DNA of 64,000 nt from a virus (IMGVR_UViG_3300022661_000054); one strand, 5' to 3'. Counted from the stretch's first letter, positions 4,653-30,598 are shown. Notes: a model not told the origin generated them from the sequence alone. Numbers and translations are program-made.

Positions 4653-5462
4653 TTAGTTGGCATAGAATGTAAGTGTTCTAAGTGAAGTGCCAGCCGGCTC
4701 AACTAATATTAAACGTAAATAACCGTCACTGCCAGTATATGAACCAATTACGGCATAAGTAGCAATATTCCAACCAGATTCATCACTAGAGTAGTGTATT
4801 AATATACGTTTATTAGCATTGAGGTCTGCTTGTGCGACAGCAGCTGAGCAACGTTCACCTGTAGATGCTATATACAGATTAGAATTTGTACCACTGGCGG
4901 CTGAACTACTATTATATACTACTGTGTCAGCGCTAACTTTTGACGGTTCAATTGTATTAAGAGAAGTTGTTGTAGAACTTTGATGTACAGTTATAGCCGG
5001 CGAACCACCTTCTAGACTCATTCTATCTAGCATTACTAAACTAACATATTCAGAACCAGTTGAAGCTGTATAATAAACACCTAAAAGTTCTACGACCGCG
5101 CCGTTGTTGTCATTTTTCACAAGAACTCTATTACCAGCTATAAAATCATTATAAATATTACCATAATCGGCAATCTGTGAGTGATTCTCATCAACATAAA
5201 TAGATGCAGAGCTTCCATGATACAGTACAGTGCTTCCCGCTGAGTCACCACCGCCAATTGAACCTAGATCTGGTTTATTTAAAATAAATGCTGGACTGTC
5301 TTCATTGGTTTCATTCCAGTCAGCCTGAACTTTTGAACCAGAAGTGGTTAAGTTAGATGCTGGAACTCTTACAACTTCTCCGCCTTCTTCAACAAGAATG
5401 TTAGGAGAGGACGGATTTTCGTGCATTTCTACTTCACTTAATTTTTTGTATTGGTAAGCCAT
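4653..5462 (-). CDS. Hypothetical structural protein (269 aa)
   Basis: ORF in the fibre operon with G/S/T-rich beta-type composition. Its start is coupled to the stop of the upstream GT2 gene. Confidence 0.6.
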   Translation of the reverse strand: MAYQYKKLSEVEMHENPSSPNILVEEGGEVVRVPASNLTTSGSKVQADWNETNEDSPAFILNKPDLGSIGGGDSAGSTVLYHGSSASIYVDENHSQIADYGNIYNDFIAGNRVLVKNDNNGAVVELLGVYYTASTGSEYVSLVMLDRMSLEGGSPAITVHQSSTTTSLNTIEPSKVSADTVVYNSSSAASGTNSNLYIASTGERCSAAVAQADLNANKRILIHYSSDESGWNIATYAVIGSYTGSDGYLRLILVEPAGTSLRTLTFYAN

Positions 5463-6259
5463 TATGACTTCCTCCTTGTATAATTTATTATTTTATTTAA
5501 TAAGGCTAAATCTTTACCTTTTAAATTTTTATATTTGTTTTGCATTTCTTCTACAGTTTTTTTAATATATGTCATGTCACCATTATTCTCAGCAATAAAT
5601 TTTGCAGATAGGTACATAGCATTTATAAAATCAGAATCCTGCTTTTTGTCTCTTTCGCTGTCAGTTTTTCTAAGCACAGAATTTTTATTAAAAGTCCATA
5701 ACATAGTCACTACCTTGATGGTATTTATCTTCATAAATGCATTACACATTGAATTAAAATACGAATCATCAGCCCATCTGACTTCAGGAGAATTTCTGAT
5801 ATTATATTTCTTTAGTGATGAAACATTATATAATTTTCCATGACACGCAGTATAATTATCAGTCCGTAAACTTAGAACATTATCTCCATGTAAAGTGTAT
5901 TGCTCATAAAAATGCGTGTGAAGAAATTCTATATCAGGATAAGCTTTGATAACTTCATTAAAAGTTTCGACTGCGTAAGGCATAAACATATCATCTGAAT
6001 CTAAGAATGTTATAAAATTCTGTTCAGTATTATCTATGCCTACCTGTCTAGTCATACCGCATCCGATATTTGTTTCATTACGAATATATCTTATATTTAA
6101 TTTAGCATTGTAATCATCTACTATTGATTTAATATCTTCAGTAGAGCAGTCATCTACGACTGTAACAGTAAAATCCTGATCTGTTTGAGCTACTAGTGAA
6201 CTAAGTGTTCTGCCTAGTGTGCTAGCACAGTTGTAAGCAGGAATAATAACATCTATCAT
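5462..6259 (-). CDS. Family 2 glycosyltransferase (GT-A fold)
   Basis: The N-terminus reads MIDVIIPAYNCASTLGRTLSSLVAQTDQDFTVTVVDDCSTED. The DxD-like triplets DSD and DDS lie downstream. This is typical of GT2. Confidence 0.85.
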   Translation of the reverse strand: MIDVIIPAYNCASTLGRTLSSLVAQTDQDFTVTVVDDCSTEDIKSIVDDYNAKLNIRYIRNETNIGCGMTRQVGIDNTEQNFITFLDSDDMFMPYAVETFNEVIKAYPDIEFLHTHFYEQYTLHGDNVLSLRTDNYTACHGKLYNVSSLKKYNIRNSPEVRWADDSYFNSMCNAFMKINTIKVVTMLWTFNKNSVLRKTDSERDKKQDSDFINAMYLSAKFIAENNGDMTYIKKTVEEMQNKYKNLKGKDLALLNKIINYTRRKS

Positions 6260-6286: not shown

Positions 6287-7984
6287 TTAAATTGTATAAA
6301 CAGCACCACTATTATCAGTTAGAATAGCACCGTTTGATGTTGTTACGGGCTCAAGACTACACACAGTTGATAAAATTTCCATTACATCTTCATCAGTAGC
6401 TATATTAATATTTATATTACCTATTTTTATATTTTTAGGCTTAGAATTAAGGAAACAAGGATCTTTTACTTCTTCACCACTTTCATTCCACCAGTCAATC
6501 ATAATAAATTGACCTAGTGCTGCTTGGGGTAATATTACTTTTAGTGTAATAGATGAATCAGTTGATTCAACGCGCTCTTCCGTATAGTCAAAACTAAGGG
6601 TGCTACCGTCTTCGCCATATAAACCACAACCAAAATCATCCACACCAACGTCAAACCTTCTCCAGTATAAGCCATTGTCAATATGTTCTTGTGTAATTTC
6701 TTGTATAGTGCTAATAGAAGTTTCTTCAAATTCATACTCACAGGATACAAGGTTATTAATAGTGTCTCCAACAACTTTAGCGTCCGCTGCAAGACCATCG
6801 TGAGTTAAAGACTTATCTGTATCTATGCGCAATCTTTTCTTATCAGCATATGCATAGATGTAACCTTCACCAGACTCTCCTGCGTCAGAAGTAATCGTTA
6901 TTGTATACGGAGCAGAGGTTTCTGATAAAATGCTGCTAGCACTAAATGAGTTAATAAAATCTCTTAATGTAAAAGTTGCAGGATTGTTCTTATTAGCTGG
7001 GAAGTAGATTAAATCATAAAGGCCTGAAACATAGCCAAAGTCTATATTATTTACTCGAAAACAATAAGCCCATGCACCGTCTATACTTGGATCTGCATAT
7101 GTATAAATAGGTGTGTCAATACTATCAACAGTAATTTTTATACCATCTGAACTATCTGAATAGTCTGTATTACCATCAATCCATTTTGAAAAAATAACTG
7201 GCTCTAATATATCTGGCGGCAGACCAATATTTTCTCTTGCCTGAGCTTTTTGTTCTTCTGTCAACTTTTGAGAGTCAAAGGATACATATTGGTCTTCAAT
7301 ACGTACTTCTTTGTAGATCTCTAAATAAGGTTTTGCCCAATCTGCAATCCAAGTAATCTCTATAGAAGTAATACCGAGCGTTTCTGGAGGGTCCATGTAA
7401 CCAAACGCATTAGAAGAATCTTCTTTTAACAATTGCTGCCAAGAACTGTAAAAGTCCATTCCAGAGACATCCACGGCACCATTGATTCCGGGAAATGTTT
7501 GATAAATTCTTTGTCCCATATCGTCATAGTACCAAATACTAAAGGTTCCTTCATATCCAGTATTATCTACGCATTTAAAGATATCAAGACCTTCGGCAAT
7601 TGGAAGATTTTCTATTTCCGGAATAGATGCTGCGCCAAGCCATCTAATACCATAAGTTGTTGTATCTCCAACTTCCATTGGAGCATACCTTTCCTCGGAC
7701 TTTTGTTCAATACCAAAAAAAGGTAGCTTATTTACTGGAGTTCTACCGTCACCAATCTTCATACGTTCATAGGTATATGGCTCAGTTCTGCTGTATGTGC
7801 CATCTTTATTCTTCGGTAATTTTGGATTACCTTCAGCATCAACTAGGACGTTTCCATTTTCGTCTACTTCGGTATCATAAACGACGATCTCACCTGCAAG
7901 AGGTTTAAAATTAGTAGCGTTAAGCCAATTTACTTCTAAGTCATGCTTATTTTGAATTCGCGTTGTAATCTTTTTTGCAGACAT
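6287..7984 (-). CDS. Tail fibre protein carrying the shared N-terminal anchor motif
   Basis: The N-terminus ...HDLEVNWLNATNFKPLAGEIVVYD...YERMKIGDGRTPVNKLPF matches the motif that recurs on six other proteins in this window. Confidence 0.75.
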   Translation of the reverse strand: MSAKKITTRIQNKHDLEVNWLNATNFKPLAGEIVVYDTEVDENGNVLVDAEGNPKLPKNKDGTYSRTEPYTYERMKIGDGRTPVNKLPFFGIEQKSEERYAPMEVGDTTTYGIRWLGAASIPEIENLPIAEGLDIFKCVDNTGYEGTFSIWYYDDMGQRIYQTFPGINGAVDVSGMDFYSSWQQLLKEDSSNAFGYMDPPETLGITSIEITWIADWAKPYLEIYKEVRIEDQYVSFDSQKLTEEQKAQARENIGLPPDILEPVIFSKWIDGNTDYSDSSDGIKITVDSIDTPIYTYADPSIDGAWAYCFRVNNIDFGYVSGLYDLIYFPANKNNPATFTLRDFINSFSASSILSETSAPYTITITSDAGESGEGYIYAYADKKRLRIDTDKSLTHDGLAADAKVVGDTINNLVSCEYEFEETSISTIQEITQEHIDNGLYWRRFDVGVDDFGCGLYGEDGSTLSFDYTEERVESTDSSITLKVILPQAALGQFIMIDWWNESGEEVKDPCFLNSKPKNIKIGNININIATDEDVMEILSTVCSLEPVTTSNGAILTDNSGAVYTI

Positions 7985-8286: not shown

Positions 8287-8544
8287 TTAGTCAGGTAAAC
8301 CGGTTATTCGCCCACCGTCAACCTCTTCATCGTAACGATGTTCATATAAAACATCTTCCGTTGTAGATTTTATAAAAAAATCTAATTCTTGTAAAGTTCT
8401 AGCGCCATCACCGACTTTAATACGAGAATACTTGATTTTGTCGTCAGGATCATATATAATTAATTCCCCTGCTTCTGGTTTAAAAGAAGATAACTTTAGC
8501 CATTCTGCCTCGGTCTTATGTAGATTACTTATTCTAGCTTTCAT
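8287..8544 (-). CDS. Anchor-only mini-protein (85 aa): the shared fibre N-terminal motif with no fibre shaft
   Basis: Sequence is MKARISNLHKTEAEWLKLSSFKPEAGELIIYDPDD..IKVGDGARTLQELDFF. A TAATG overlap couples it to the upstream gene. Confidence 0.6.
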   Translation of the reverse strand: MKARISNLHKTEAEWLKLSSFKPEAGELIIYDPDDKIKYSRIKVGDGARTLQELDFFIKSTTEDVLYEHRYDEEVDGGRITGLPD

Positions 8545-9236
8545 TAATTAAAGTTACCTCCATTTTTAAGAATTTGTTTAATTACCATATTGTCTACCGA
8601 TTCAGATATATCTGTACCATAAGAAAACATATTTACTTTTTCCATGTCTGATAGAGATTTTATATACTGTTTAGCGGCATTAAAATATGTTGTATGGTAA
8701 AGAACGTGTGCCCTGAAAGTTTTTACAATCTTAAGCATGTCTTCACGTAAAAATATTTTACACGGTTTATCAGTAGCGTGATATATAAAGGTTTCTTCTC
8801 CCGCAACTAACTGACCTTCAATTACCATTAAGTTAATTTGATCTTCTGTAGTTAATTTAAAACTACACAATTCGCCATCAGATAAAGTAACAGAAAAACC
8901 GGCAGTAATTTTATTTTTACACGTATTAGAAAGACGTTTTATAACTTCACGCTTGGCCTTGGCAAGGGCTGATTCATTAGCGCTAGGCTCCTGACCAGAG
9001 TTTAATAGACTCTGTAGTCTATTAAACTCTTCAGAAGAAATTTCTTCAATAGTAACTATATCTGACTTTCTCTGCGCCAGAGGAGCAAATGCATATAAAG
9101 TTGTATTATCAGAACCGACTATTCCATGAGCGGAAGACTTATCCGTAAGATTTACTTGACCTGTAGACATCAGTCTAAAGAAGCGAGGTATCTTTACTAC
9201 ATCAATAACCTTATTATTAAGTATAATTTTATACAT
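8544..9236 (-). CDS. Hypothetical protein (230 aa), possibly a fibre assembly or adapter protein
   Basis: Its start overlaps the stop of the giant gene through a TAATG junction. No motif recognised. Confidence 0.65.
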   Translation of the reverse strand: MYKIILNNKVIDVVKIPRFFRLMSTGQVNLTDKSSAHGIVGSDNTTLYAFAPLAQRKSDIVTIEEISSEEFNRLQSLLNSGQEPSANESALAKAKREVIKRLSNTCKNKITAGFSVTLSDGELCSFKLTTEDQINLMVIEGQLVAGEETFIYHATDKPCKIFLREDMLKIVKTFRAHVLYHTTYFNAAKQYIKSLSDMEKVNMFSYGTDISESVDNMVIKQILKNGGNFN

Positions 9237-12200
9237 TATGCTTCCTCCTCATACTCAAAATTAAGAATACAATTACTTGCACCAAATGTTGGGTCTTTTT
9301 CTCTGCCTTGATCGTCTACTCCAGAATAGTAATTGTAATGTTGCTCTTCTGTCCATGGGAAATTAAATATAACAGGGTTATCCTGGCTACCAGAATTTAT
9401 GAAGGCTCCTGGATGAATATAGAAAGGCTGCTTGTCACCACTTTCAGTATTTTTAAAAGTTACACTCTTCAAAGTTGACATATATCCAAAAGCTCTCTCC
9501 ATGATGTTGGTTACAGTAGATGGGATTATAACACTTTCTAATATACATTGATTAAATACATAAGTTCTTATGTCAGTTAAGCCTTCTGGTAAGACTACTT
9601 CAGATAGCTTATAACACCAAGAAAAGCAAATATCACGTAATTCTTTTAGTGTACTTGGCAACACAACATTTTGTAGTTGCTCACAATGACTAAATGCATT
9701 GTCAGCAATAGAACTTACACCATTAGGTATTTCAATAGCTGTAATTGGCATTTTAGCAAAGCAATATCTACCAAGACTGACTACAGAACCATCTTGTGGA
9801 ATCTCGTTAGTTAGACCTTGAAGTAACTTTTTACTTTGTTTATCAATTAAACAATTTTGTTTAACTACAAATTTAGTATTGCCTTCTGCAACATTAATTT
9901 TCGTTAGCTTCAAGCATTCTGCAAAAGCGCCGTCATTAATAGTAGAAACATTAACTGGAATAGTTATTTCTTTTATTGTATCACAGCCTTGGAAAGCCCT
10001 TGAATCAATTGTTTCTAGAGAATCAGGTAAATTAATCAACTCCAATTCATCATGATCGTTAAAACCACCTAATCGTATTACAGTATAAGGCATGCCAGCG
10101 ACCTCAATATTTTTTGGTACAGTAACAGCAGCATTTTGATAGTTATTATATTTAATAATAGCCATTGTACCATCTGGATTGAGCGTATGCCCGACTTGTA
10201 GCTTTTCATTATAATCATAATATTCACCAATATCATAAATGTCTACTACATGCCAGGAGCTTTCTGATACCTTAAATTGTGCATAGCAAGTCATCGGACC
10301 AACAATTTTTTCTGGTGCTGGATGCCAACCAGTAAACTCATATATATCAGAAGATGGTACAACCGGAGTGGGATAGCCAGCGCCAAAGTAGTCTGCATCT
10401 TCACCATAAGGAACATAAATTTCAGCTAATAATTGGTTTCCCTCTGGGGCAGTTTGGTTTATAAATGTTATAAGATAACTACGCCTAATTGCCTCAAAAG
10501 CAGGATAAAGTATTCGATTACCAGCAACTCCAAGTAAAGCATCCGCATGAACACCCTCACCTAATTTTCTAGTCCAACCAATCCACTCGTAATTAAACTC
10601 TTCAGTAGAATCTTTAGTAGGCTTAGCAATCATACCTTCAGGCACTTGGCCATCGTCACCTAAATAGACCGGATCTTCACAATCAACTATCTCAGAATTA
10701 TATGATATAATGGTTTCACGATGTAGTACTGTTTCACCATCAGCACCCATAAATATAACATCTGAAGTCATTTCACCATATATAATATCAAGATAAGGAT
10801 AATGAGCTTTAATTTCTGTATACTCCTCACCTGTGAGCTTTGTAATATAGCAAGTACCAACTAAATAAGCGTCATCTAAAGGATTGTTTTTTTCGTCAAT
10901 ACCTCTTATACCACTAACAAGATTACCTGCTTCATCAAATACTGGAAACAAAGATGTGATAAAACTAGCATCAGCTAAAGGCATTTCTGCCGTGCCCCAC
11001 TCGATACCGGTAAGACGGACACGCTCAACAGTGTACTTGCCAGTATTATCGCAGCAATTTGCAAGTATTTCATTTGTATTCAAATTAGGACAGTTTTCTA
11101 TACACAAAGTTCTTATGTTTTGGTAACCCTCTACATAAAATCCGTCTATGAAGTCATCAGAACCGTTCTCTCCACGCTGTGGATACAAATAATGTTGATT
11201 TTTAATAACTAGCGTATTAATCGATGCAGGAAGATGAAGCGTCTTAATATAGCCACTAGTAGGCAGGTCTACTGAGGTAAGGTTAGTACCTTCAGTGTAA
11301 ATATGCTCAATATTAGGACATCCAGATAGCTCCAAAGTCTTTTGCGGATTTTCACCCGCAATACCAAGGCCTGAGCAGTTTCTTAAATCAATATAGCGCA
11401 ACAACCTATTAGAGCCTACTGAAATTTCACGGAAGTTATCATTATAATATGCAGAGTCTGGATTACCAACAGTTAGCTCTGTTAATTTTGCAGCATTACT
11501 TAGGTTAATAACACCACAATATAAACCAGACAAATCACCAAGAGAAGAGATTTCGCTGGCACCATAGATAGCGGTCTCAGTGTCACCGAATGTTTCATTC
11601 TCATTTAGCGGTTTAAATGTGTAAGATTCACCTGCTTTTAACCTTTGTTGCTGAAGTGTACCAGACTTATAACGAACGCCAGCATACATATCTGAGAAGG
11701 GTGTTATAGTAATATTAGGATTAGCAGGTACAACAGCCAAAGAAGCGTTGATACGATCAATTTCTTCCTGTGTAGCATCGTCAGCAGCCTTAGGAGTATA
11801 AATTCGTAAGAAAATATCATCACTCGGGTAGTTTCCTGCATACCACTTGCTATCACAGTAATTTATACGGTTATCAATAAAGTATCTTAAATGGTGCTCA
11901 CCAGGGCCACGAACTTGATAAAGGTTAGAAGCATCTATACCAGTTACTTCATTACCGTCTTCATCCTTATGAGCAACATGCTCTCTTGCCATAGAAACGT
12001 ATTTATAATCTGCGTCAGCGTTATAGATGGCAGCACTCCATTTATCAGAACCATTAGTAACGAATTGTTCTATAATTTTATTATAGGTTAGCTTTCCACT
12101 ACTTCTTAGTTCAGAATAAGTATCCTCGATCTCTTTTGGAAAACAGAGTCTGAAGTTGTTCCAAAGTACGCTATTCTGACCATTAAATACATTAGAAGAA

Positions 12201-15200
12201 CCGAGTTGATCAGTATCTTCGTGAAAATAGTCAAAAACTAGAGCACCTTCATTGTTGATACCAAAAATTGTGTCGTTATCATAGAAGTATGGATACCATC
12301 TAAAAACACCATCGTCCTCTTTCCAACGAGTAAGGAATAGGTTCTTAGCCCTCTGGTCAGTCATTAGCGCAAAGAACGTGAATACATAATACATGCTACT
12401 ATAATGCATGTTGAAGTAATTTTTAAATTCGTACTTAAACTTAGCTAATCTATACTCTTCATTGTCCTCAGTATAAGTTGTTTCACCATAAACTATAGGT
12501 TCAGTCAATGGTGCAGGGGTAATTGCTACTTTTTTACCATCTATAAGAGAATATGTAGCTGTACTGAGTACCCAATCATGCATTTCTTTAAAGTTAGCAA
12601 TGCAGTTAGACATTAAAGTAGCGAGCTCATTTCTTTGCGCGGATGTCATTGTACCTTTTCCGCTTGCTGCGAGCTCTTCAACTTCTTTTAGTTCTTCAAT
12701 ACGCTCAAAGTTAGCAGATTCTGGTACATATCTCGGTTCAAAGTCTTCTAGCCAATCAGCTGTGATCTCACCGGCGAAGTTTACTGTGTCAGAAGTGTTA
12801 TTACAGAATTCCCAACATTCTACGCCGTAGTCTTTATACTCTTCAGTAAATCCAAAAGCATTTTCAGCATCTTTATCATAGTTAAAGTTACCCTTAGATG
12901 AAAACACTGGTTCAGAGTCTTCAGTCTCTTTTTCAAAGATAATAATTGGGAAACCTTGAATCGTTGTACGTACTCTAGTATCATCTTTCTGCGGCGGGAG
13001 AATTACTTCTTCTCTATCATAAAAAGTTTCAACGTAATTAGCAACTCCTGTATTGTGGGTACCAGTAGCTTCTGCGTAATCTACTTTAACACAAAATACT
13101 TTTGCTGGAATGGCCCCAGGCATATGAGCCCTTGCTTCAGGAAGCTTTACTTTCCAGTTTTTACGAATATAGAACTGTGAAGAAGTACCTTGTACGTCAA
13201 TCTGGTCCAAAAGTACGTCAAAATTCATTTCTGGGTGCGTTGGGTCCTCAAACTTCATACGTGTAGTCTTCTTCTTTTTATCACCTTTATACGTAGGCAT
13301 TGGGCCTGTAAAAGTAATAATAGGAATCTGCCCGAGAGCTTTTACTCTATCATATGAAACCTTACCGTTTTCGTCTAATATATCATTATCCGTCATAAGC
13401 TGTAGTCTTGTAGTAGGCACAGTCTGGTCTGCAATATAGTTATTTAAAGCGGCAGATGTTGAAAGTGCTTTATTATAAATACGAATATTATAAATATCAA
13501 GTCCACATAAATTTGAACCCAGTTTAATAGTTAATGGGTTATTCTGCTGAAAGCTATCAGTGTCTGCATATCTTTGTACTCCAGAAAGAATACCGTCAAG
13601 ATATATAGAAACAAAACGAGAAGTCGTATCTGAATGTTCTACTGCTATAGCGACTCTAACACGCTCCTCATCTTTATATCTGCAAGAAACCTCTGTACCA
13701 GAGCTCTTTAAGAAAGCAGTATCTGGGGTTGCTCTGAAACCTTTAGAACCATCGAAACAATCGATTACAACAGCATCGCGGTCATTAACATCACGAACAA
13801 CAAACTCAAATTCAATGGTTTTACCATTAGCCTTAAAGTCTTCAGCAAAAGGTTTAAAGTTAATAATTGCTTTAGCATCACCATTTAGTCTTAAGCAGGT
13901 ATCACCGGCATTATCAGTAATCCAACCGTTAGATGTCCAGTTAAAACCCTCAAAAGAAGTAGTAACCGTGTTATATGTTTTGTCACCATCAGGTGCTTGA
14001 GTATATTCCCAAATGGCTGGATTTTGCTCATTATTTGAGCGACCTTGTGCAGACAGGTAGAGCTGCATACTGTCCTCTTCAGGTGATACATCTACCTCAA
14101 GCTCTGCCACCCTCACAGTATGTGATTTAGTAATAGTCGTTTGTACACCATACAAATTATAAGTATAACTAATTTCAAATACTGCAATACCATTTGGATA
14201 TTTTCTCGTATTCCAGAATTGCTGGCTACGGTCTACAGTAATAGATGTTCTGTCTATTTCAATTAATTCGCCAGCTACCTGAGAGTACACAATAAGTTCG
14301 ATATCACTATTAATTTTAGCAGGGTCATAAACCATGTAAGGAATTGATACAAGGTCACCCTGAGTAGCTTCCTCAAAGTCATACACAGATGTGATAATAG
14401 CAGTATTGTTATCATTCTCAATACAAATAATCTCATACTCAAGAATATTAGAAGTAACAGTATTGTCGCCAACAACTGCGGATACATGAGCAGTAATTTT
14501 ATGGCATCCATGAGCTTGCTTCGGAATTAGCAAGGTTATTTCATTACCACTAACACTTGCGCCAAGTTTTTTAATAGAAACCTCTGCGCCATCTACTAAG
14601 ATATAGGCAGTCTTTTCTATCTGCCCAAATACTTTATATCTGAATGTAATAGCATCATTAAAAATTTGTGTACTATTAAAAGCAGATTCAAGACGGAGTT
14701 CAATCTGTGAAATGGTATATACTAAAGTTCTCAAAGAACCATACTGGTCAGTACAAGTTACCTTAACAGTATTTGAACCATTTTTTAAATGATCTGCAAC
14801 ATTCAAAGACTTAGCTATTCCATGTTGAATACTACCAGATAGAGTCTCAATTTTTTTATCATTTATAACAACAGAATAAACACCATCACCAGTAGGTACT
14901 TCATTTTCGAATGATGTATAAGTGAAATTAATCAATGCTTCATTACCCTTTGAAATAGTAAATGAAGTAGAAGGAAGATTATTTATTACTCTAACCGTGG
15001 AGATGCTTCCACCACCACCTGTGCCTCCAGTAATAGTTACTGGGTCACCAACCGGTATATCTTTAGAAGTTAACCATAGCTGATTGTCTTCGTAGAGCAA
15101 ACCATCAACAGCGTTAGAAGGAATATAGCTAGGTAGACTTGCTTTAAGAGCGTCGAGGTCATCACCAATAGCTCTAACTGCATCACCAGCAGAAGCGTGA

Positions 15201-16990
15201 TCTATACCATTATAACCGAGTCTGATGTCAATTACCTCTTCATCTCTAGTAAGCTCTCCCGGCTTAGGTGCTATAAGGTTATTTATACGTTTTGACTGTA
15301 ATTCCAGCTCTGTATTTGTTTCAGTTATTCTGGTCGTGTTAGCTTCAACAACTTCACCAAGTTCATATAATTCTTTTTCTAGCTCTTCTTTGTTCGTTTT
15401 AATACTACTAGTAACTGCGCTTATTTCAGCGCTTATAGAATTTTGAGTATCTTTTATTTGTTTATCTAAAGAATCAAGCGTTTCCTGTTTTTCTATAAAG
15501 GTTAGATTAGTTGTAGATCTAAGTGATTCAACATTTTCAGTTAGCTCTGATTTTGTTTCCTCAATTGTTTTAGCTACGGAGTTCTCAATATTAGTTATTG
15601 ATTGAACTATTTTAGTATCAACTTTATCTGATAAAGCATTTAAATTGGCGTCTACTTTTGCAATTTCATCTGTTAAGCGACTGTCAGTCTGATTAAGAGC
15701 CTCAGAAACATATGCAATTTCGGTAGCTAAAGTATTTTTAGTCTGGTTAATTTTAGCATTTAATACATTTTCTACTGCATATACCTTGTTTAAAATCATT
15801 ATATCATCATCTACGAGATCAGCAATCTCTGCATAGATTTTTGTGACATAATTAAGCAGTGTTGTTAATAAATTTTCATAAGAAGCCTTTTGAGCTTGAT
15901 CAGCTACTGTAATTTCATCAGCAATTCTAGTAAATCTATCATTAGTATCTTTTTCTAAATTATCTAATTCTGCCTGTATGCTGGCGGTAATTGCAGTAAG
16001 TATATTACTTACCTCATAAATTTTATTTAAAAGCAGCACATCATCATTACTCAGCTGTTCATTTAAAGAATTAATCTGAGTTAGAATATTATTAACACTA
16101 TCTGAACTTTGCTGTTTAAAGCTATTTAATTCTTGACCTAATGTGCCGTCTGCTATTATAAGGTCCTCTATTTGTTGTACAAGCTCAGACAATTTATTTT
16201 TATGCTGATCATCGACCATGGTGAGCTGAATTTCAAAATTAGCAATAGCATCCTGCAGGTCTTTAGACTGCTTTGTATCTGTATCATTAATAAGTTTACG
16301 TAATGCTTTGTCAGTTGATATACAGTCATTTATTTTATTAGATAGCTCAGCAGCTTTTGTAGCCAGTTCATTATATAAATTTTGAACTTCAACTGAATGT
16401 AAATTTTCAAGTTCTTCTGCTTTGCTCTGAATTTTAACATCAAGTTCTGTGATTGCAGGATGAATGTGTTCTTCTAAAGTAGCCACTAATCCGTTAACGT
16501 TTTGTTCTAGAGCTTTAAGTTGCTTAGTTGTGCCAGTAGCTTTGTTACTTATCTCTTTACCAAGCTTTTCATCTAGCGACGCAATGCTCATAGCTAGATC
16601 GGAACTTGTCGATTCTGCGAGTTTATCCAGTTTTTCTTCAAGTACTTCAACATTTGATGAAATTGAGTCGGATAAAGCTTCTTCAGCCTTTGTGAGCTTC
16701 TCATCTAAATTCTCTACCGTTACGAGCAAAGCACCTTGTGTGCTCTTTATCTTAGATACTTTAGTGTCAAAAGTTTTTTCAGTTAAATTTATTTTTTTAA
16801 GTAGCTCAGTTTTTGTTGTGTCATCTACATATGGTAAATCTAAAAATTTAGTCTTACCATTACCTATTTTGCATTTACGAGACCCATCAAAGCACTCTTC
16901 TATAACAAGTTCACAGTTTTCAGGTACTAAATTAATTTTTTGCCATTCCTCTGTAGTACCTCTACGATGTCTTATGATATTATATGCCAT
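9236..16990 (-). CDS. Giant multidomain fibre/appendage protein (2584 aa). Domain order: N-terminal anchor, long coiled coil, LamG/ConA-like lectin, CotH-like domain, LRR-like region, BspA-type LRR region
   Basis: Single uninterrupted ORF with TGGAG RBS. Residues 1-55 carry the anchor motif (RHRRGTTEEWQKINLVPENCELVI...KIGNGKTKFLDLPYV). Residues 60-590 show heptad, Leu/Glu-rich coiled coil. A Laminin_G_3-like segment ends in DIYNIRIYNKALS. A CotH-like core reads AKNLFLTRWKEDDGVFRWYPYFYDNDTIFG. LRR-like segments include LxxLxLxxC and LPDSLETIDSRAFQGC. Confidence 0.9.
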   Translation of the reverse strand: MAYNIIRHRRGTTEEWQKINLVPENCELVIEECFDGSRKCKIGNGKTKFLDLPYVDDTTKTELLKKINLTEKTFDTKVSKIKSTQGALLVTVENLDEKLTKAEEALSDSISSNVEVLEEKLDKLAESTSSDLAMSIASLDEKLGKEISNKATGTTKQLKALEQNVNGLVATLEEHIHPAITELDVKIQSKAEELENLHSVEVQNLYNELATKAAELSNKINDCISTDKALRKLINDTDTKQSKDLQDAIANFEIQLTMVDDQHKNKLSELVQQIEDLIIADGTLGQELNSFKQQSSDSVNNILTQINSLNEQLSNDDVLLLNKIYEVSNILTAITASIQAELDNLEKDTNDRFTRIADEITVADQAQKASYENLLTTLLNYVTKIYAEIADLVDDDIMILNKVYAVENVLNAKINQTKNTLATEIAYVSEALNQTDSRLTDEIAKVDANLNALSDKVDTKIVQSITNIENSVAKTIEETKSELTENVESLRSTTNLTFIEKQETLDSLDKQIKDTQNSISAEISAVTSSIKTNKEELEKELYELGEVVEANTTRITETNTELELQSKRINNLIAPKPGELTRDEEVIDIRLGYNGIDHASAGDAVRAIGDDLDALKASLPSYIPSNAVDGLLYEDNQLWLTSKDIPVGDPVTITGGTGGGGSISTVRVINNLPSTSFTISKGNEALINFTYTSFENEVPTGDGVYSVVINDKKIETLSGSIQHGIAKSLNVADHLKNGSNTVKVTCTDQYGSLRTLVYTISQIELRLESAFNSTQIFNDAITFRYKVFGQIEKTAYILVDGAEVSIKKLGASVSGNEITLLIPKQAHGCHKITAHVSAVVGDNTVTSNILEYEIICIENDNNTAIITSVYDFEEATQGDLVSIPYMVYDPAKINSDIELIVYSQVAGELIEIDRTSITVDRSQQFWNTRKYPNGIAVFEISYTYNLYGVQTTITKSHTVRVAELEVDVSPEEDSMQLYLSAQGRSNNEQNPAIWEYTQAPDGDKTYNTVTTSFEGFNWTSNGWITDNAGDTCLRLNGDAKAIINFKPFAEDFKANGKTIEFEFVVRDVNDRDAVVIDCFDGSKGFRATPDTAFLKSSGTEVSCRYKDEERVRVAIAVEHSDTTSRFVSIYLDGILSGVQRYADTDSFQQNNPLTIKLGSNLCGLDIYNIRIYNKALSTSAALNNYIADQTVPTTRLQLMTDNDILDENGKVSYDRVKALGQIPIITFTGPMPTYKGDKKKKTTRMKFEDPTHPEMNFDVLLDQIDVQGTSSQFYIRKNWKVKLPEARAHMPGAIPAKVFCVKVDYAEATGTHNTGVANYVETFYDREEVILPPQKDDTRVRTTIQGFPIIIFEKETEDSEPVFSSKGNFNYDKDAENAFGFTEEYKDYGVECWEFCNNTSDTVNFAGEITADWLEDFEPRYVPESANFERIEELKEVEELAASGKGTMTSAQRNELATLMSNCIANFKEMHDWVLSTATYSLIDGKKVAITPAPLTEPIVYGETTYTEDNEEYRLAKFKYEFKNYFNMHYSSMYYVFTFFALMTDQRAKNLFLTRWKEDDGVFRWYPYFYDNDTIFGINNEGALVFDYFHEDTDQLGSSNVFNGQNSVLWNNFRLCFPKEIEDTYSELRSSGKLTYNKIIEQFVTNGSDKWSAAIYNADADYKYVSMAREHVAHKDEDGNEVTGIDASNLYQVRGPGEHHLRYFIDNRINYCDSKWYAGNYPSDDIFLRIYTPKAADDATQEEIDRINASLAVVPANPNITITPFSDMYAGVRYKSGTLQQQRLKAGESYTFKPLNENETFGDTETAIYGASEISSLGDLSGLYCGVINLSNAAKLTELTVGNPDSAYYNDNFREISVGSNRLLRYIDLRNCSGLGIAGENPQKTLELSGCPNIEHIYTEGTNLTSVDLPTSGYIKTLHLPASINTLVIKNQHYLYPQRGENGSDDFIDGFYVEGYQNIRTLCIENCPNLNTNEILANCCDNTGKYTVERVRLTGIEWGTAEMPLADASFITSLFPVFDEAGNLVSGIRGIDEKNNPLDDAYLVGTCYITKLTGEEYTEIKAHYPYLDIIYGEMTSDVIFMGADGETVLHRETIISYNSEIVDCEDPVYLGDDGQVPEGMIAKPTKDSTEEFNYEWIGWTRKLGEGVHADALLGVAGNRILYPAFEAIRRSYLITFINQTAPEGNQLLAEIYVPYGEDADYFGAGYPTPVVPSSDIYEFTGWHPAPEKIVGPMTCYAQFKVSESSWHVVDIYDIGEYYDYNEKLQVGHTLNPDGTMAIIKYNNYQNAAVTVPKNIEVAGMPYTVIRLGGFNDHDELELINLPDSLETIDSRAFQGCDTIKEITIPVNVSTINDGAFAECLKLTKINVAEGNTKFVVKQNCLIDKQSKKLLQGLTNEIPQDGSVVSLGRYCFAKMPITAIEIPNGVSSIADNAFSHCEQLQNVVLPSTLKELRDICFSWCYKLSEVVLPEGLTDIRTYVFNQCILESVIIPSTVTNIMERAFGYMSTLKSVTFKNTESGDKQPFYIHPGAFINSGSQDNPVIFNFPWTEEQHYNYYSGVDDQGREKDPTFGASNCILNFEYEEEA
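9431..10063 (-). other. BspA-type leucine-rich-repeat region (about residues 2310-2520)
   Basis: Repeating units: LPDSLETIDSRAFQGCDTIKEITIP, INDGAFAECLKLTKINV, IADNAFSHCEQLQNVVLP, IMERAFGYMSTLKSVTF. Confidence 0.55.
11891..12493 (-). other. CotH-like domain in the giant protein (about residues 1500-1700)
   Basis: The motif AKNLFL...WYPYFYDNDTIFG is paralogous to the motif in the 3323..4639 product. Confidence 0.45.
13436..13903 (-). other. LamG / concanavalin-A-like lectin domain (about residues 1030-1185)
   Basis: The segment LRLNGDAKAI...IDCFDGSKGF...FVSIYLDGILSG...DIYNIRIYNKALS is the typical Laminin_G_3 C-terminal signature. Confidence 0.6.
15221..16813 (-). other. Coiled-coil stalk of the giant protein (about residues 60-590)
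   Basis: Heptad-like L/I/E/K/N-rich sequence with no Pro or Gly runs. Confidence 0.6.
16826..16990 (-). other. N-terminal anchor domain of the giant protein
   Basis: Residues 1-55 match the shared fibre N-terminal motif. Confidence 0.6.
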
Positions 16991-17054
16991 AAGCTTAACT
17001 CCAATCTACTTGTTTTATTGTTCGTATAATTTAGCAAATAGATTAAAAAAAATT

Positions 17055-17082
17055 AAGCAGGTGACCTTAAGGTCACCTGCTT
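17055..17082 (-). terminator. Intrinsic terminator after gene 17107..19398
   Basis: Perfect 28-nt palindrome aagcaggtgacc-ttaa-ggtcacctgctt followed by TTTTTTTT on the minus strand. Confidence 0.75.
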
Positions 17083-17106
17083 AAAACATATATTAGTATC
17101 TAATTA

Positions 17107-19398
17107 TTACTTTGTTTCGTCTATTACAGTATCAGCAGTGCCGCAGTCAATTATGAACCAACCACCAAATCTATCCTCAAGGGCAGTAACACGACCATCT
17201 ACAGCAGAAATAGCAGCAGTGTTATCAGCAACTTCATTTTCCTTAAGAGCTTTTACCTGATCATCAGCATGTTTTTTAGCAGCAGCCTCTGCAGCAGGAA
17301 TTGTAGTATTTACAGCTGTATCGATTCTAGCGTTAATCTGAGTATCAGCAGCAGCAAATTCACTACGAATAGCAGCCTCCTGACCTTCAGCTCTAGATTT
17401 CTCGGTAGCGATAGCTGTAGTATTCTCACCAATTTTACCAGTATTAGCAGCAATATCGGATGCGTTCTTCTCAACAACAGTCTTTAGCCCAAACTTACCA
17501 TCAGCTTCTGTCTTAGTATAAACGTTACCAAGAGCCTGCTCTGTGGCATTCTTATCTGTTTCGTAAGTAGCTTTGTCAACTTTCTTACCAAGCTCGGTCT
17601 CAACATCTGTCTTTAGAGCATGCTTTGCAGACTCTGTCTCAAGAGCAGTGATCTTGCCCTCAGCTGTAGTCATACGACCTTCAAGAGCAGTTACGCCAGC
17701 AGCTGCCCCTTCAGCAGTTGTTTTTACGCCATCAACAACGTCTTCAAGTGCATCAACGTCATCCTGAGCAGCATCCGCTGCAGCCTGCGCAAGAGCAGCA
17801 TTATCGATACCAGTCTGGCCCTTTGCAGCTGCAGCTTCTACAGCAGCCTTAATAGTACCATCAAAACCTGCAGTTAGCGTTTCAAGACTACCAACTTTGC
17901 CTTCGAGAGTAGTTGCACGGCCTTCAACTGCGGTTGCACGACCTTCAAGAGCATCAATGTCATCCTCTGCTGTATCCATACGGTCACTAAGTGCTTCGAT
18001 AGCATCAGCATTGGCTGCAATATCCTCTACCATTTTGCCGGCGGCGGTGTCATCATCAGTGATATATTTTTGAATCTCTACTAAAGTGTCAAGAGCTTTG
18101 TCAATAGTAACAGAGTTACCTTCAGCATCTTTTGGATCAAAGAATGCTTCAACTTTATCAAGACGCTCGTCAAGAGCTGCTTCAGCCGCTTCAGCACGAC
18201 CCTTTTCAGTAGTTACAAGACCTTCAACTCTAGTAATCTCAGCAGTAACAGCTGAATTGTTATCAGTAATAGCCTTAGTATTTGCCGCAACAGTTTCTGC
18301 AAGAGCATTTACCTGAGAGGTAGTCTCACCTTTAGCGGCCTCAATAGCTTCACCCTTAGCAGTTGCAATAGCAGAAGTATAAGCATCAGTTACATTAGTG
18401 ATAGCAGTCTCTCTGTCGCTCTTTTCAGTTACAATAGCATTAGCATTATTAGAGATAAGACCAGCAAGTCTGGTATCCTCAGCAACGAGCTCTGCATCTT
18501 TTGTATTTAAAGTATTAACAGCGCTAGAAAGTGCACTAGCAGCAGTCGCTTCAGCGGCAGCCTGTGCTTCAGAAGCCTTAGTCTCTGCGTGAGACTTTGC
18601 AGCAGACTCTGCAGCACTAGCCTTAGAAGCAGCATCAGCCTTAGCTGCCTCAAGAGTCGCTGCGTCGCCAGTAGCAATAGTACCATTGTTACCTACGAGA
18701 GCGTCGATACGACCACCAAGAGCAGAGTCAGCAGCTTCAAGTGCAGACTTAGCAGTAGCTAACGCACCAGCAGCAGTTGCTTCGGCCGCAGTCTGAGCAG
18801 CATTTGCTTTTCCGTCTGCATAGCTCTTTAGCTCATCATCAGACATTGCCTTACCTGCGATGTAAGCATTATAAACACTCTTATCGAGTTTATCATTACC
18901 TAGGTTTGTAATAGTGCCTTCAGCGGTTTCAAGACGTTCATCAAGAGCATCAATCTGACCCTGAACAGAATCTTCACCATCGAATTTGCCTTCGAGTGCA
19001 ACGATTCTGGAATCTAAACCATTTGTAATAGCCTTCACATCTGCTTCAGTATAATAATCAAAGGTAACTGACTCGATAATATTATCTTTAGCATCTAAGA
19101 AGCGAAGAACTTTACCAGAGCGGTCAATCTTTGCAGCCTTAGCCCAACTATAAACATCAGCTGCGAGGGAGGAAGCCCATTTTAGATCCTTAAAAGGGGT
19201 AGTACCATCACCAATTTTAAAAAGTGTTGTAGGAGCGGTCTGCGCGCCTTCACTCTTATTTTCTATAGCACAGATACCGAGCTCACCTTTTAAAAGTACG
19301 AGATTTGCTCCTAGGTCAGTCTTAGACTCGTCATGCCAGTGATCATAAGTATCATACTTAAGAGCAATTCTAGTTTGTAATTTCTTTACATCAGCCAT
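17107..19398 (-). CDS. Ala-rich coiled-coil fibre protein (763 aa) with the N-terminal anchor motif
   Basis: The N-terminus ...HWHDESKTDLGANLVLLKGELGIC...LFKIGDGTTPFKDLKWAS is followed by a long A/E/T-rich heptad region. RBS is AGGAGATAAATAATT. Confidence 0.85.
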   Translation of the reverse strand: MADVKKLQTRIALKYDTYDHWHDESKTDLGANLVLLKGELGICAIENKSEGAQTAPTTLFKIGDGTTPFKDLKWASSLAADVYSWAKAAKIDRSGKVLRFLDAKDNIIESVTFDYYTEADVKAITNGLDSRIVALEGKFDGEDSVQGQIDALDERLETAEGTITNLGNDKLDKSVYNAYIAGKAMSDDELKSYADGKANAAQTAAEATAAGALATAKSALEAADSALGGRIDALVGNNGTIATGDAATLEAAKADAASKASAAESAAKSHAETKASEAQAAAEATAASALSSAVNTLNTKDAELVAEDTRLAGLISNNANAIVTEKSDRETAITNVTDAYTSAIATAKGEAIEAAKGETTSQVNALAETVAANTKAITDNNSAVTAEITRVEGLVTTEKGRAEAAEAALDERLDKVEAFFDPKDAEGNSVTIDKALDTLVEIQKYITDDDTAAGKMVEDIAANADAIEALSDRMDTAEDDIDALEGRATAVEGRATTLEGKVGSLETLTAGFDGTIKAAVEAAAAKGQTGIDNAALAQAAADAAQDDVDALEDVVDGVKTTAEGAAAGVTALEGRMTTAEGKITALETESAKHALKTDVETELGKKVDKATYETDKNATEQALGNVYTKTEADGKFGLKTVVEKNASDIAANTGKIGENTTAIATEKSRAEGQEAAIRSEFAAADTQINARIDTAVNTTIPAAEAAAKKHADDQVKALKENEVADNTAAISAVDGRVTALEDRFGGWFIIDCGTADTVIDETK

Positions 19399-29737: not shown

Positions 29738-30598
29738 TTACAGATATAGCTTATACTTATTTTGATTTTTAGCTGCGATGACGGTATTCTGCATAAGCAT
29801 TGCAATTGTCATAGGTCCGACACCACCAGGTACCGGAGTAATCCATGATGTTTTGCGTGAAACATTTTCAAAATCGACATCACCACAGAGCTTGCCGTCT
29901 ACACGGTTAATTCCGACATCAATAACGACAGCGCCGTCTTTAACCATATCTGCTGTAATAAACCCAGGACTGCCGACGGCAACCACAAGAATGTCAGCCC
30001 GACGACAAACTTCTGTCAAGTCATTAGTTTTAGAATGCGCTGTTGTGACAGTGCCGTCTTTGTGAAGCAATAGCATGCTCATTGGCTTTCCGACAATATT
30101 AGATCTACCTACAACAACACACTCTTTGCCAGCTACTTCAATATTATAGTAGTCAAGCATTTCCATAACACCTGCGGGGGTACAAGGAAGAAAATCATAT
30201 TCGCCGATCATAATTTTACCAACATTTTTTGGGTGAAAGGCATCTACATCTTTGTATGGACTAACTGCGTTCAAAACAGCTTTCTCGTCATAACCAGGTG
30301 GGAGGGGGAGCTGCACAAGAATACCATCAATTGCTTCGTCAATGTTTAAGTCGTAGATAAGTCTAATAAGCTTTTCCTGGCCAATATCCGCAGGTAAATT
30401 AAACTGTCTTGAAATAATACCCGTCTCCTCACAAGCCTTTTGCTTATTTCTTACATATACCTGCGAAGCTTGGTCTTCACCAACTAAGATAACAGCCAAA
30501 CAAGGATAAACTCTTTTTTCTTTTAGTTGTTTAACTTCTTCGGCTACACGCTCCTTAACCGCTTTTGATACAACCTTACCATCAATAATATTACTCAT
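29738..30598 (-). CDS. folD: Bifunctional 5,10-methylene-tetrahydrofolate dehydrogenase / methenyl-THF cyclohydrolase
   Basis: Full-length FolD (286 aa). Sequence reads NIIDGK...LAVILVGEDQASQVYVRNK...VVVGRSNIVGKPM. The YxxxK-type substrate motif and the GRSxIVGxP NAD(P)-binding motif are both present. Confidence 0.9.
   Translation of the reverse strand: MSNIIDGKVVSKAVKERVAEEVKQLKEKRVYPCLAVILVGEDQASQVYVRNKQKACEETGIISRQFNLPADIGQEKLIRLIYDLNIDEAIDGILVQLPLPPGYDEKAVLNAVSPYKDVDAFHPKNVGKIMIGEYDFLPCTPAGVMEMLDYYNIEVAGKECVVVGRSNIVGKPMSMLLLHKDGTVTTAHSKTNDLTEVCRRADILVVAVGSPGFITADMVKDGAVVIDVGINRVDGKLCGDVDFENVSRKTSWITPVPGGVGPMTIAMLMQNTVIAAKNQNKYKLYL

Follow-up and report, generated by a model that had tools for sequence, protein, structure and literature searches.

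The window analyzed here is a 64,000-nucleotide stretch of viral DNA. Its minus strand carries a single ATG-started open reading frame (ORF) that encodes a giant protein of 2584 amino acids (9236..16990, stop codon included), exactly as delimited in the first-pass annotation, and all features described below lie on this strand. The motifs quoted in that annotation are also all present, namely DIYNIRIYNKALS at aa 1165, AKNLFL at aa 1548, WYPYFYDNDTIFG at aa 1565, and LPDSLETIDSRAFQGC at aa 2321. The gene is equipped with a GGAG ribosome-binding site of its own, and a terminator-like hairpin (14 bp followed by T8; 17053..17084) separates it from the preceding fiber gene. At the 3′ end, the TAA stop codon shares bases with the ATG of the next ORF (TAATG). 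The neighboring genes are fiber-like (phrog_1348 tail fiber protein; Phage_fiber_2 in a relative).

Integrity of the open reading frame

The great length of this ORF, as well as the existence of some database relatives that are "halves" stopping near aa 1571, may raise the suspicion of mis-assembly or of several genes fused through sequencing error. This explanation is effectively refuted. Eighteen assembled contigs encode an identical 2584-aa product; 16 of these contigs are 0.2–1 Mb in size, for example an ENA contig of 220,267 bp. Full-length homologs (2100–2540 aa) are numerous, and dozens of these are colinear with the giant ORF. The ORF is not an assembly artifact. AlphaFold models also keep high confidence where one domain passes into the next (pLDDT 86 and 91). 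For the half-length relatives, the one case examined (P0030) is accounted for by a group I intron, whereas a genuine two-ORF variant found in 13 related loci differs from the intron case. The ORF in the window is uninterrupted, so neither situation applies to it.

Domain architecture

An N-terminal anchor (aa 1–57; 16820..16990) had been claimed previously. It appears to be present and Mtd_N-like, although its match to Pfam Mtd_N is weak and sub-threshold (E 0.0094; 16.3 bits, cut-off 26.3). The anchor motif consists of I6, W16, E27, K41-x-G43-x-G45, and L52, and also starts five other ORFs in the window. In addition, phrog_38006 matches aa 1–64 of the giant protein, and the relatives carry at their N-terminus either Mtd_N or, above threshold (53.3 bits), BppU_N.

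The anchor is followed by an alpha-helical stalk of the coiled-coil type (aa ~58–575; 15266..16819), recognized by its hydrophobic periodicity and scarcity of proline. The hydrophobic period is 3.61 residues, with a power of 4.89 compared with 0.92 ± 0.28 (maximum 1.95) in shuffled sequences, and there is a secondary 11-residue period. Between aa 60 and 575, the 516 residues include two Pro and seven Gly. A coiled coil was recognized by a long proline-free stretch combined with a hydrophobic periodicity of ~3.5–3.67 residues, and the stalk has both properties; its matches to coiled-coil Pfam families (e.g., Apolipoprotein and DUF1664) are sub-threshold. The ~530-aa coiled coil proposed earlier corresponds to a helical stalk of ~515 aa. 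A conserved neck defined by the family consensus (aa ~576–664; 14999..15265), with a GGxGGGG linker at its end, marks the beginning of the family-wide conserved core, and BLAST homology of short-stalk relatives starts at about query position 560.

Three Ig-like beta-sandwich domains (aa ~665–962; 14105..14998) follow the neck. Next is a ConA/LamG-like jelly roll (aa ~975–1172; 13475..14068), for which the Pfam Laminin_G_3 match at aa ~1051–1178 stays under the gathering threshold (18.5 bits, E 0.0023; threshold 27.6). The LamG lectin fold suggested earlier is nevertheless borne out at the level of structure, as this region has a ConA-like beta-jelly-roll fold in the predicted models; carbohydrate binding is putative. 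Downstream of the CotH domain described below, the LRR-like middle block of the first-pass annotation is present as a cysteine-containing LRR-like solenoid (aa ~1806–2000; 10991..11575), and its assignment as a cysteine-type LRR is supported but not conclusive. The final part of the conserved core consists of two beta-rich repeats (aa ~2042–2241; 10268..10867) delineated by predicted secondary structure, each with a conserved [YF]-x-[FW]-x-GW end, in which G2138 and W2139 are invariant and G2221 and W2222 are near-invariant. A Pfam search gave no match for these repeats, which, like the three Ig-like domains, had been missed earlier.

The C-terminal tip is a BspA-type LRR of ~8 repeats of ~23 aa (aa ~2316–2530; 9401..10045). 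The previous assignment of this block is strongly corroborated by Pfam LRR_5, which matches two stretches in aa ~2316–2513 (134.8 bits, cut-off 27.7; E 2e-39). As modeled, the block folds like solved BspA-type LRR proteins, and the BspA-type LRR surface proteins PDB 4gt6, 4fs7, 4fdw, PcpA (4cp6), and TpLRR (6mlx) have the same LRR_5 type. In BspA-type proteins, the LRR is part of a bacterial cell-surface protein, whereas in the giant protein it forms the distal tip of a putative phage fiber.

CotH kinase-fold domain

A CotH-like core had been placed at residues 1500–1700. The domain is considerably larger (aa ~1213–1716; 11843..13354) and includes a helical/beta insertion of ~80 aa (aa ~1428–1509). 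Pfam CotH (threshold 23.8 bits) matched neither the whole protein (E ≤ 1) nor the segment aa 1180–1760 (E ≤ 10). Among the homologs, P0111 and P0115 pass this threshold (24.7 and 26.5 bits, respectively) and P0119 scores 21.2 bits. The same gene string also contains a stand-alone CotH paralog of 438 aa (3323..4639; Pfam CotH 78.9 bits, E 6.5e-22), which covers the full CotH profile, is colinear with aa 1217–1716 of the giant protein, and keeps the catalytic motifs. Comparison of the family profile with this paralog by hhalign was highly significant (98.7%, E 3.6e-16, 374 columns). This homology, together with the modeled CotH atypical kinase fold and the invariant catalytic residues described below, substantiates the CotH-like core. 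With the Bacillus CotH kinase (PF08757; 5JD9/5JDA), the domain shares 12% identity, and the family profiles had no sequence-level match to these structures. Moreover, the domain differs from Bacillus CotH in its position in the middle of a 2584-aa fiber, its ~80-aa insertion, and its lectin-like and LRR flanks.

Two catalytic motifs were located by family alignments, the catalytic-loop motif D1545-Q-R-A-K-N1550 (D-x4-N; 12341..12358) and the metal-binding-type motif D1571-N-D1573 (Y-D-x-D; 12272..12280). D1545, N1550, D1571, and D1573 are invariant in three family alignments (27, 36, and 78 sequences), and K1549 is invariant in the two smaller alignments and at least 90% conserved in the largest. 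D1545-x4-N1550 aligns with DGLAKN of the Pfam-recognized CotH paralog and, in a weak alignment, with FDGFVHN of Bacillus cereus CotH, which corresponds to D228 of B. subtilis; D1571-x-D1573 aligns with the CotH WDYD, which corresponds to B. subtilis D251. In B. subtilis CotH, mutating either D228 or D251 abolishes the kinase activity (PMC7821199). Because a direct hhalign comparison with the 5JD9 sequence is weak and not significant (E 0.23), we infer the equivalence of these residues from the motif pattern and the fold rather than from residue-level superposition.

The combined D-x4-N and D-x-D motif is found in 67 of 83 loci, Hankyphage included. In 13 of the other 16 loci, both half-motifs are kept but split over two overlapping ORFs. 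This split CotH fold is seen in several Lachnospiraceae-type loci, with the ORF break between the two catalytic motifs, an arrangement that would be atypical of an active enzyme and counts against catalysis. In one close relative, a self-splicing-type group I intron is placed exactly within the D-x-D motif (YD|ND).

Family distribution and modularity

The core (aa ~560–2240) was found in 1854 representative protein clusters, as well as in at least 124 loci of species-representative genomes of Bacillota and Bacteroidota. The LamG-CotH-LRR core is a module that is conserved and widespread among fiber proteins of gut phages and prophages, and the domain mix that the first-pass annotation called unusual is no rarity among phages; the target of the Hankyphage diversity-generating retroelement (DGR) shares it as well. 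A CotH-bearing fiber core is already in the literature and is common in gut phages, but proteins combining CotH, Laminin_G_3, and LRR have been described as unstudied (PMC5758913; PMC8008677; bioRxiv 10.1101/2024.11.15.621889).

While the core is constant across the family, the stalk length and the C-terminal tip vary, and the tip alone is exchanged. The N-terminal part before aa 640 ranges from 25 to 616 aa (median 141) in 77 aligned homologs and from 25 to 639 aa across the family, and the ~515-aa stalk of the giant protein is the longest in the sampled family. Where the giant protein has the BspA-type LRR, relatives may hold DUF6273, Kelch, or C-type lectin; among the 120 homologs listed, the tips include ~80 LRR_5, ~27 DUF6273, and ~7 Kelch. 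These patterns bear on the earlier proposal of a host-adhesion appendage with several receptor-binding modules. Adhesion agrees with the genomic context, but exchange is confined to the tip, and the constant core with its invariant kinase motifs resembles an enzyme or a structural body, not a collection of alternative modules for receptor binding.

Comparison with known phage proteins

The core (aa 874–2075) is homologous to a 2245-aa ORF of Hankyphage (tblastn E 1e-86, 26.7% identity), which lies behind the genes for the tape measure, the baseplate hub, and a minor tail protein and whose C-terminus holds the DGR variable repeat. This protein is regarded as a DGR-diversified putative tail fiber (PMC12135933). 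The variable protein of Hankyphage (Bacteroides phage p00) was assigned to category f1 (Wu et al., 2018; PMC5758913), and the Hankyphage-type protein to "domain group 3" (Macadangdang et al., 2024; bioRxiv 10.1101/2024.11.15.621889). Similar to the giant protein, it has ~2000+ aa, a colinear core of ConA/LamG-like, CotH-fold, and LRR domains, the D-x-R-A-K-N ... Y-D-x-D-T motifs, and a ligand-binding domain at its very C-terminal end; its gene is located in the tail module. Its status as only a "putative" tail fiber weakens the fiber analogy. Furthermore, the two proteins differ in that the Hankyphage tip is a DGR-diversified C-type lectin rather than a BspA-type LRR, and the ~515-aa helical N-terminal stalk is a feature of the giant protein. 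No TR/VR-like direct repeat involving the 3′ end of the giant gene is present in the window, and there is no reverse transcriptase among the neighboring genes scanned. The phages themselves are also different: Hankyphage is a temperate transposable phage (PMC12135933) with a 43-kb genome record and a Bacteroides host, whereas the phage of the giant protein has a genome of ~220 kb and, as suggested by its SLH lysin, probably a Gram-positive host.

Mtd is a protein of just a few hundred residues. Mtd of Bordetella phage BPP-1 and the lactococcal BppU-type baseplate fibers likewise combine a short anchor of the Mtd_N/BppU_N kind with a C-terminal ligand-binding domain that sets tropism. However, the Mtd_N match of the giant protein is sub-threshold, and nothing between anchor and tip is related.

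Putative function

The giant protein is likely a modular receptor-binding/adhesion fiber of a ~220-kb phage of a Gram-positive gut anaerobe, with a CotH-type enzyme that is probably active. The Mtd_N-like domain would plug the fiber into the tail or baseplate of the virion, and the same plug would head at least five other fiber-like proteins of this phage. The amphipathic helix of ~515 residues would form the stalk, possibly a trimeric coiled coil ~75 nm long. The constant body would then run from the three Ig-like domains through the ConA/LamG-like jelly roll, CotH, and the cysteine-type LRR to the two beta repeats, with the C-terminal BspA-type LRR as an exchangeable tip that may touch a host-surface ligand.

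Alternatively, the giant protein may be an appendage, on the head or elsewhere, for decoration or adherence to mucus rather than a tail fiber directed at the bacterial host, or a binder released at lysis that targets host-animal glycans or other bacteria. Both variants appear improbable. In gut and oral bacteria, BspA-type LRR proteins are host-matrix adhesins, decoration proteins typically have Ig-like and lectin-like domains, and mucus adherence has been proposed for the Hankyphage variable protein (PMC6199706). Additionally, no gene for a tape measure or baseplate protein was recognized in the window. However, the N-terminal domains of the family (Mtd_N/BppU_N) are tail or baseplate anchors, and the gene is surrounded by fiber-like genes with the same N-terminal plug. 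The homologs in two annotated phages lie within the tail module; in addition to that of Hankyphage, the homolog of phage NatCom_3357 is found between Dit/tail genes and holin-endolysin genes. Finally, no signal peptide is evident at the N-terminus of the giant protein. These features favor a tail-associated fiber.

If the CotH domain of this fiber is active, it would act as a phosphotransferase. One option is that phosphotransfer takes place in the ATP-containing cytoplasm during fiber assembly, similar to CotH in spore-coat assembly; the window encodes no Ser/Lys/Arg-rich CotB/CotG-like substrate. The other option is phosphotransfer onto a surface glycan bound by the neighboring lectin-like domain. 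A kinase that depends on ATP would find no evident supply of it outside the cell. In the free virion, the domain is exposed to the ATP-poor extracellular environment, which is consistent with a different, possible but rather doubtful explanation, namely that the CotH fold of the fiber is a non-catalytic scaffold or a ligand-binding pseudo-kinase. For example, the domain might recognize a surface ligand that is phosphorylated or nucleotide-sugar-like, or it might act as the joint of the constant and exchangeable halves. The low similarity to canonical CotH, insufficient for Pfam or PDB sequence matches, fits this explanation, and fungal CotH proteins serve as host-receptor ligands (PMC9973265). 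Moreover, the split of the fold between the catalytic loop and D-x-D in the 13 two-ORF loci and the 70–190-aa insertions that other relatives have in the same CotH region suggest that the fold tolerates two-chain assembly, as a docking joint would. Nevertheless, one or more of these residues are usually missing from pseudo-kinases, whereas homologs that otherwise share only 33–40% identity keep, without exception, the residues corresponding to the catalytic Asp, the Asn, and the metal-binding Asp. An enzyme that is probably active, as predicted by sequence conservation, is therefore preferred, and the catalytic motifs are also kept in the homologs of Hankyphage and NatCom_3357, as in the stand-alone paralog.

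Domain Architecture of the Giant, Probable Fiber Protein

The gene of the giant tail-fiber-type protein (9236..16990, minus strand) is, as the first-pass annotation had claimed, a single ORF of 2584 aa; it is unbroken and starts with ATG, and the four peptide motifs quoted in that annotation are found at aa 1165, 1548, 1565, and 2321. The identical 2584-aa product is present on 18 contigs of public assemblies, 16 of which are 0.2–1 Mb in size (e.g., 220,267 bp), and many colinear homologs of 2100–2540 aa exist. The ORF is therefore real and not an accident of assembly.

From the descriptions in two earlier studies, the architecture of this protein is already known in outline. Among DGR targets, Wu et al. 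(2018; PMC5758913) reported large phage proteins that match CotH and Laminin_G_3 weakly, and the "domain group 3" variable proteins of Bacteroides contain CotH-active-site motifs, carbohydrate-binding motifs, and LRRs (Macadangdang et al., 2024; bioRxiv 10.1101/2024.11.15.621889). For phage fibers tipped with BspA-type LRRs, no describing paper was found within our incomplete coverage of the literature. To our knowledge, the conserved body of this fiber family has never been explained, though the Bacteroides phage Hankyphage diversifies the protein by a retroelement. The present analysis assigns the fold with high confidence, maps the catalytic motifs and shows them to be invariant, and gives the size of the family and its phylogenetic spread. 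It also adds the variable stalk, a paralogous free CotH protein, and the intron and split variants. In addition, the nearest relatives sampled are mostly not DGR targets, and their tips are BspA-type LRR, DUF6273, or Kelch modules.

Because sequence libraries alone recognize only the C-terminus of the giant, family alignments and AlphaFold models of aa 640–1760 (pLDDT 86.1) and aa 1741–2584 (pLDDT 90.9) were built. The BspA-type LRRs proposed for the C-terminus are confirmed by Pfam LRR_5 (134.8 bits vs. a cut-off of 27.7) and by matches to BspA-type LRR structures among the PDB sequences (best E-value 6.7e-43). Sub-threshold Pfam matches include Mtd_N (16.3 bits), Laminin_G_3 (18.5 bits), and coiled-coil-type families, and Foldseek with the model of aa 640–1760 mostly picked up three tandem Ig-like domains. 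From the N-terminus, the protein consists of a putative anchor (aa 1–57), a predicted helical stalk (aa ~58–575), a conserved neck (aa ~576–664), the three Ig-like domains (aa ~665–962), a ConA/LamG-like jelly roll (aa ~975–1172), a CotH fold (aa ~1213–1716) with an insertion at aa ~1428–1509, a probable cysteine-type LRR region (aa ~1806–2000), two beta repeats with a [YF]x[FW]xGW motif (aa ~2042–2241), and about eight BspA LRR repeats (aa ~2316–2530). In the stalk, hydrophobic residues recur with a period of 3.61 residues (power 4.89 vs. a maximum of 1.95 among 500 shuffles), a secondary period of 11 residues is seen, and the 516 residues include just two prolines. These sequence properties fit a long, hendecad-rich type of coiled coil and agree with the coiled-coil stalk suggested earlier.

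A CotH Fold With Invariant Catalytic Motifs

The CotH-like core proposed in the first-pass annotation is not matched by Pfam in the whole protein or its segments, nor in the PDB by phmmer or hmmsearch with the protein, the family profile, or a profile of the CotH region. The assignment was established through a bona fide CotH protein of 438 aa, which is encoded 5 kb downstream in the same gene string (3323..4639, minus strand). This stand-alone protein covers the full Pfam CotH profile (78.9 bits, E-value 6.5e-22), retains the DGLAKN and YDLD motifs, and has no phmmer match in the PDB. BLASTP between the giant and the stand-alone CotH gives two colinear matches (E-values 3e-6 and 4e-6), and hhalign with the family profile of the giant pairs aa 1217–1716 with aa 37–436 of the stand-alone protein over 374 columns (98.7% probability, E-value 3.6e-16). 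Among distant members of the giant family, P0111 and P0115 exceed the Pfam CotH cut-off of 23.8 bits (24.7 and 26.5 bits, respectively), whereas P0119 falls below it (21.2 bits).

Columns that are invariant between the giant family and the stand-alone CotH comprise Q-G-T-S (aa 1267–1270), K1277-N1278, K1302, D1304, D1545, A1548, K1549, N1550, Y1570, D1571, and D1573. For comparison with the Bacillus spore-coat kinase, D228 and D251 were located in a sequence taken to be that of B. subtilis CotH, for which the validation is that it matches the PDB entry 5JD9 with an E-value of 1.6e-142 and has Asp at positions 228 (NYD-GFVHN) and 251 (PWD-YD). The replacements D228Q and D251A inactivate B. subtilis CotH (PMC7821199). 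In an hhalign comparison of the giant CotH profile with 5JD9, which is not significant (E-value 0.23), the sole aligned segment is the region of the catalytic motifs, where TD1545QRAKN1550 is paired with FDGFVHN and YD1571ND1573 with WDYD. Alignments of 27, 36, and 78 homologs, with identities down to 33–38%, show no variation at D1545, N1550, D1571, or D1573, and the pattern D-x-x-x-K-N ... [YFW]-D-x-D-[TAS] is present in 67 of 83 related loci examined, including those of Hankyphage and phage NatCom_3357. The domain of the giant is thus a CotH fold that retains the catalytic signature, and its activity is a prediction.

Breadth and Modularity of the Fiber Family

With the core (aa 640–2100) as query, 5.8 billion proteins yielded 156 matches, nearly all of which are 1700–2540 aa long. 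HMMER, run with the CotH region alone over the full set of 1.84 billion cluster representatives, detected 1854 clusters at E-values of 1e-3 or lower, 1307 at 1e-10 or lower, and 629 at 1e-30 or lower; nearly all of the best 150 of the 1854 are giants that carry the domain in mid-protein. When one genome per bacterial species was scanned, at least 124 loci were found, which are spread over Oscillospiraceae, Lachnospiraceae, Acutalibacteraceae, Hespellia, Zongyangia, Bacteroides, Tannerellaceae, Alistipes, and others. Among large structural proteins of gut phages of both Bacillota and Bacteroidota, this family is one of the most widespread.

The region of aa ~560–2240 is colinear in the whole family, and both ends vary. 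The region N-terminal to aa 640 is 25 to 616 aa long in the homologs (median 141 aa), such that the 639 aa of the giant are the longest in the family sampled, and the N-termini of homologs carry Mtd_N or BppU_N (53.3 bits). By our own count from a precomputed Pfam list of 120 homologs, about 80 carry LRR_5 as their C-terminal module, about 27 DUF6273, and about seven Kelch. With its constant core, its stalks ranging from 25 to 640 residues, and interchangeable tips of at least four kinds, the family amounts to a natural toolkit, which could guide host-range prediction and engineering of gut phages.

Taken together, the best-supported picture is that of a modular virion fiber in which an anchor is followed by a stalk of adjustable length, a constant body, and a tip that can be exchanged. 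The tip would be the determinant of specificity on comparative evidence, because it is the sole part swapped between unrelated binding folds and is also the target of hypermutation in Hankyphage.

Interrupted Relatives

Several database homologs stop at a position equivalent to aa ~1571 of the giant. One of these half proteins, P0030 of a close relative, has 54% identity to the giant over aa 1–1571 and 65% over aa 1572–2571, and it is explained by a group I intron-like element that interrupts the gene. At the locus L084 (ENA ERZ27297724 k141_658952), homology to the giant breaks at 13238 after ..YPYFYD and restarts at 13493 in another frame with NDTIFG... The intervening 254 nt (13239–13492) match the full length of the Rfam model RF00028 (27.1 bits vs. 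a gathering score of 50; E-value 4.6e-5) and contain no ORF. U is the last base of the 5' exon and G that of the intervening sequence, and a P1 helix is predicted in which the exon end CUACGAU pairs with GUCGUAG. At this locus, gene callers split the product into two proteins (1746 and 1051 aa), and excision of the element restores Y-D-N-D in frame. The same interrupted structure is found in an independent sample (L085). The insertion point lies between D1571 and N1572 of the invariant Y-D-N-D, a position that appears consistent with extreme constraint on this site. Sites such as this are the usual choice of group I introns because they are unable to change.

A second type of interruption is found in 13 Lachnospiraceae-type loci (L039, L049, L050, L052–L055, L057, L058, L061, L069, L072, and L079), among them that of the isolate Hespellia stercorisuis DSM 15480. 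The gene consists there of two ORFs with an overlap of a few bases (e.g., ATGA beside a poly-A tract). The split lies inside the CotH fold, between the catalytic loop and D-x-D, with the first ORF terminating after DSRAKNMFPSFMGGDISA and the second containing MKKKIVFLPYDFDT. Two chains may rebuild the fold, or a (possibly programmed) frameshift may yield one product. Neither the intron-like element nor the split is present in the giant gene of the window.

Possible Roles of the Constant Body

The constant body combines a lectin-like jelly roll with a kinase fold. As the catalytic residues never change, the sequences argue for an enzymatic, or at least nucleotide-binding, role that is common to all members whatever the receptor. 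Two settings may be envisaged. The fiber or other virion proteins could be phosphorylated in the ATP-rich cytoplasm during assembly, similar to the kinase activity of CotH that patterns the spore coat (PMC7821199). Alternatively, the domain could act on a surface glycan presented by the neighboring lectin-like domain.

Two CotH-fold proteins, the giant and the stand-alone CotH, are encoded beside the fibers of this phage, and a GT2 glycosyltransferase gene (5462..6259, minus strand; Pfam 90.1 bits) lies downstream of the giant in the same gene string. The stand-alone CotH and GT2 genes would fit a module for virion or surface modification. A more specific reading, which we hold to be possible but rather doubtful, is that the CotH domain of the fiber is an active phosphotransferase that acts with these two proteins. 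They would form a system for covalent phosphorylation and glycosylation of virion fiber proteins at assembly, comparable to CotH-driven spore-coat morphogenesis, or else modify a glycan of the host surface that the adjoining lectin-like domain holds. Invariance of the catalytic residues favors catalysis, but ATP has no obvious source outside the cell, no CotB/CotG-like Ser/Lys/Arg-rich substrate gene was found in the window, and the relatives with a CotH fold split in two ORFs also speak against it. If this doubtful reading is true, the giant would be the first protein-kinase-superfamily enzyme shown to be a built-in part of a phage tail fiber, with a reach of more than a thousand gut-phage lineages, including Hankyphage. 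Whether the fiber performs chemistry besides binding is a directly testable question given the invariant catalytic motifs and the group I intron in the D-x-D of a relative, and interest in the giant would rise if the kinase fold proves active.

Locus, Phage Context, and Host

The giant gene has a GGAG ribosome binding site, and its TAA stop codon shares bases with the ATG start of the next ORF. Between it and the preceding gene lies a terminator-like hairpin (14 bp followed by T8; 17084–17053). Around the gene, sigma-70-type promoter matches do not exceed the frequency expected by chance. A 40-nt intergenic element, which includes TGCTAAATTA on the coding strand, occurs upstream of two fiber-type genes (17018–17057 and 8206–8245; 75% identity) and is a candidate promoter or regulatory motif of the phage. 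The minus strand carries every large ORF of the window (G+C ~35%), and no structured RNAs (Rfam) or tRNAs were found within these 64 kb.

The best GenBank phage matches of the giant are hypothetical proteins of Bacteroides phages and of phage NatCom_3357. The homolog in Hankyphage p00 is a 6.7-kb ORF after the genes for the tape measure, baseplate hub, and minor tail proteins; it has a DGR variable repeat at its extreme C-terminus and is regarded as a DGR-diversified putative tail fiber (PMC12135933; PMC6199706). A search for TR/VR-type repeats involving the giant gene found none. In NatCom_3357, the homolog is located between Dit/tail genes and holin-endolysin genes, and the upstream neighbor of a relative carries Phage_fiber_2.

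The giant is flanked by other large ORFs. At least five ORFs share its ~55-aa N-terminal motif (I..W....GE....K.G.G....L), namely 6287..7984, 8287..8544, 17107..19398, 22328..23521, and the distant 48962..50458, all on the minus strand. One of these (85 aa) has little beyond the N-terminal domain, and those of 565 and 498 aa have 82% DNA identity over 72 nt (7718–7789 vs. 50225–50296). By their shared motif, these ORFs look like different fibers with one common attachment plug. A 230-aa ORF downstream of the giant matches a tail-fiber PHROG; as a candidate for a conserved partner or chaperone it was rejected, since the NatCom_3357 homolog is followed by an ORF that is not similar to it.

The window also encodes an M23 peptidase with three SLH domains (66..1046, minus strand; SLH 131.5 bits), and on the full contig this gene is followed by Amidase_3 beyond the low end of the window. 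Given the SLH domains and the tblastn matches of the lysin solely in phages of Gram-positive hosts, the host is probably Gram-positive with SLH-binding wall polymers, which is the narrowest placement.

Two other features of the window concern further proteins. The 1352-aa protein of 24143..28201 (minus strand) has internal DNA and protein repeats (D1, D3, D4, D6, D7; PTKVSELENDA.Y), one copy of which is common to ORF 48962..50458, and is probably another repeat-built fiber rather than a tape measure protein. Finally, auxiliary genes typical of large phages are found at 29738..30598, 32507..33037, 47685..48833, and 58664..59629 (all on the minus strand); they encode a FolD-like tetrahydrofolate dehydrogenase/cyclohydrolase (phrog_7320, E-value 4e-116), a dNMP kinase, an RNA ligase/tail-fiber attachment catalyst (phrog_562), and a D12-class N6-adenine methyltransferase.
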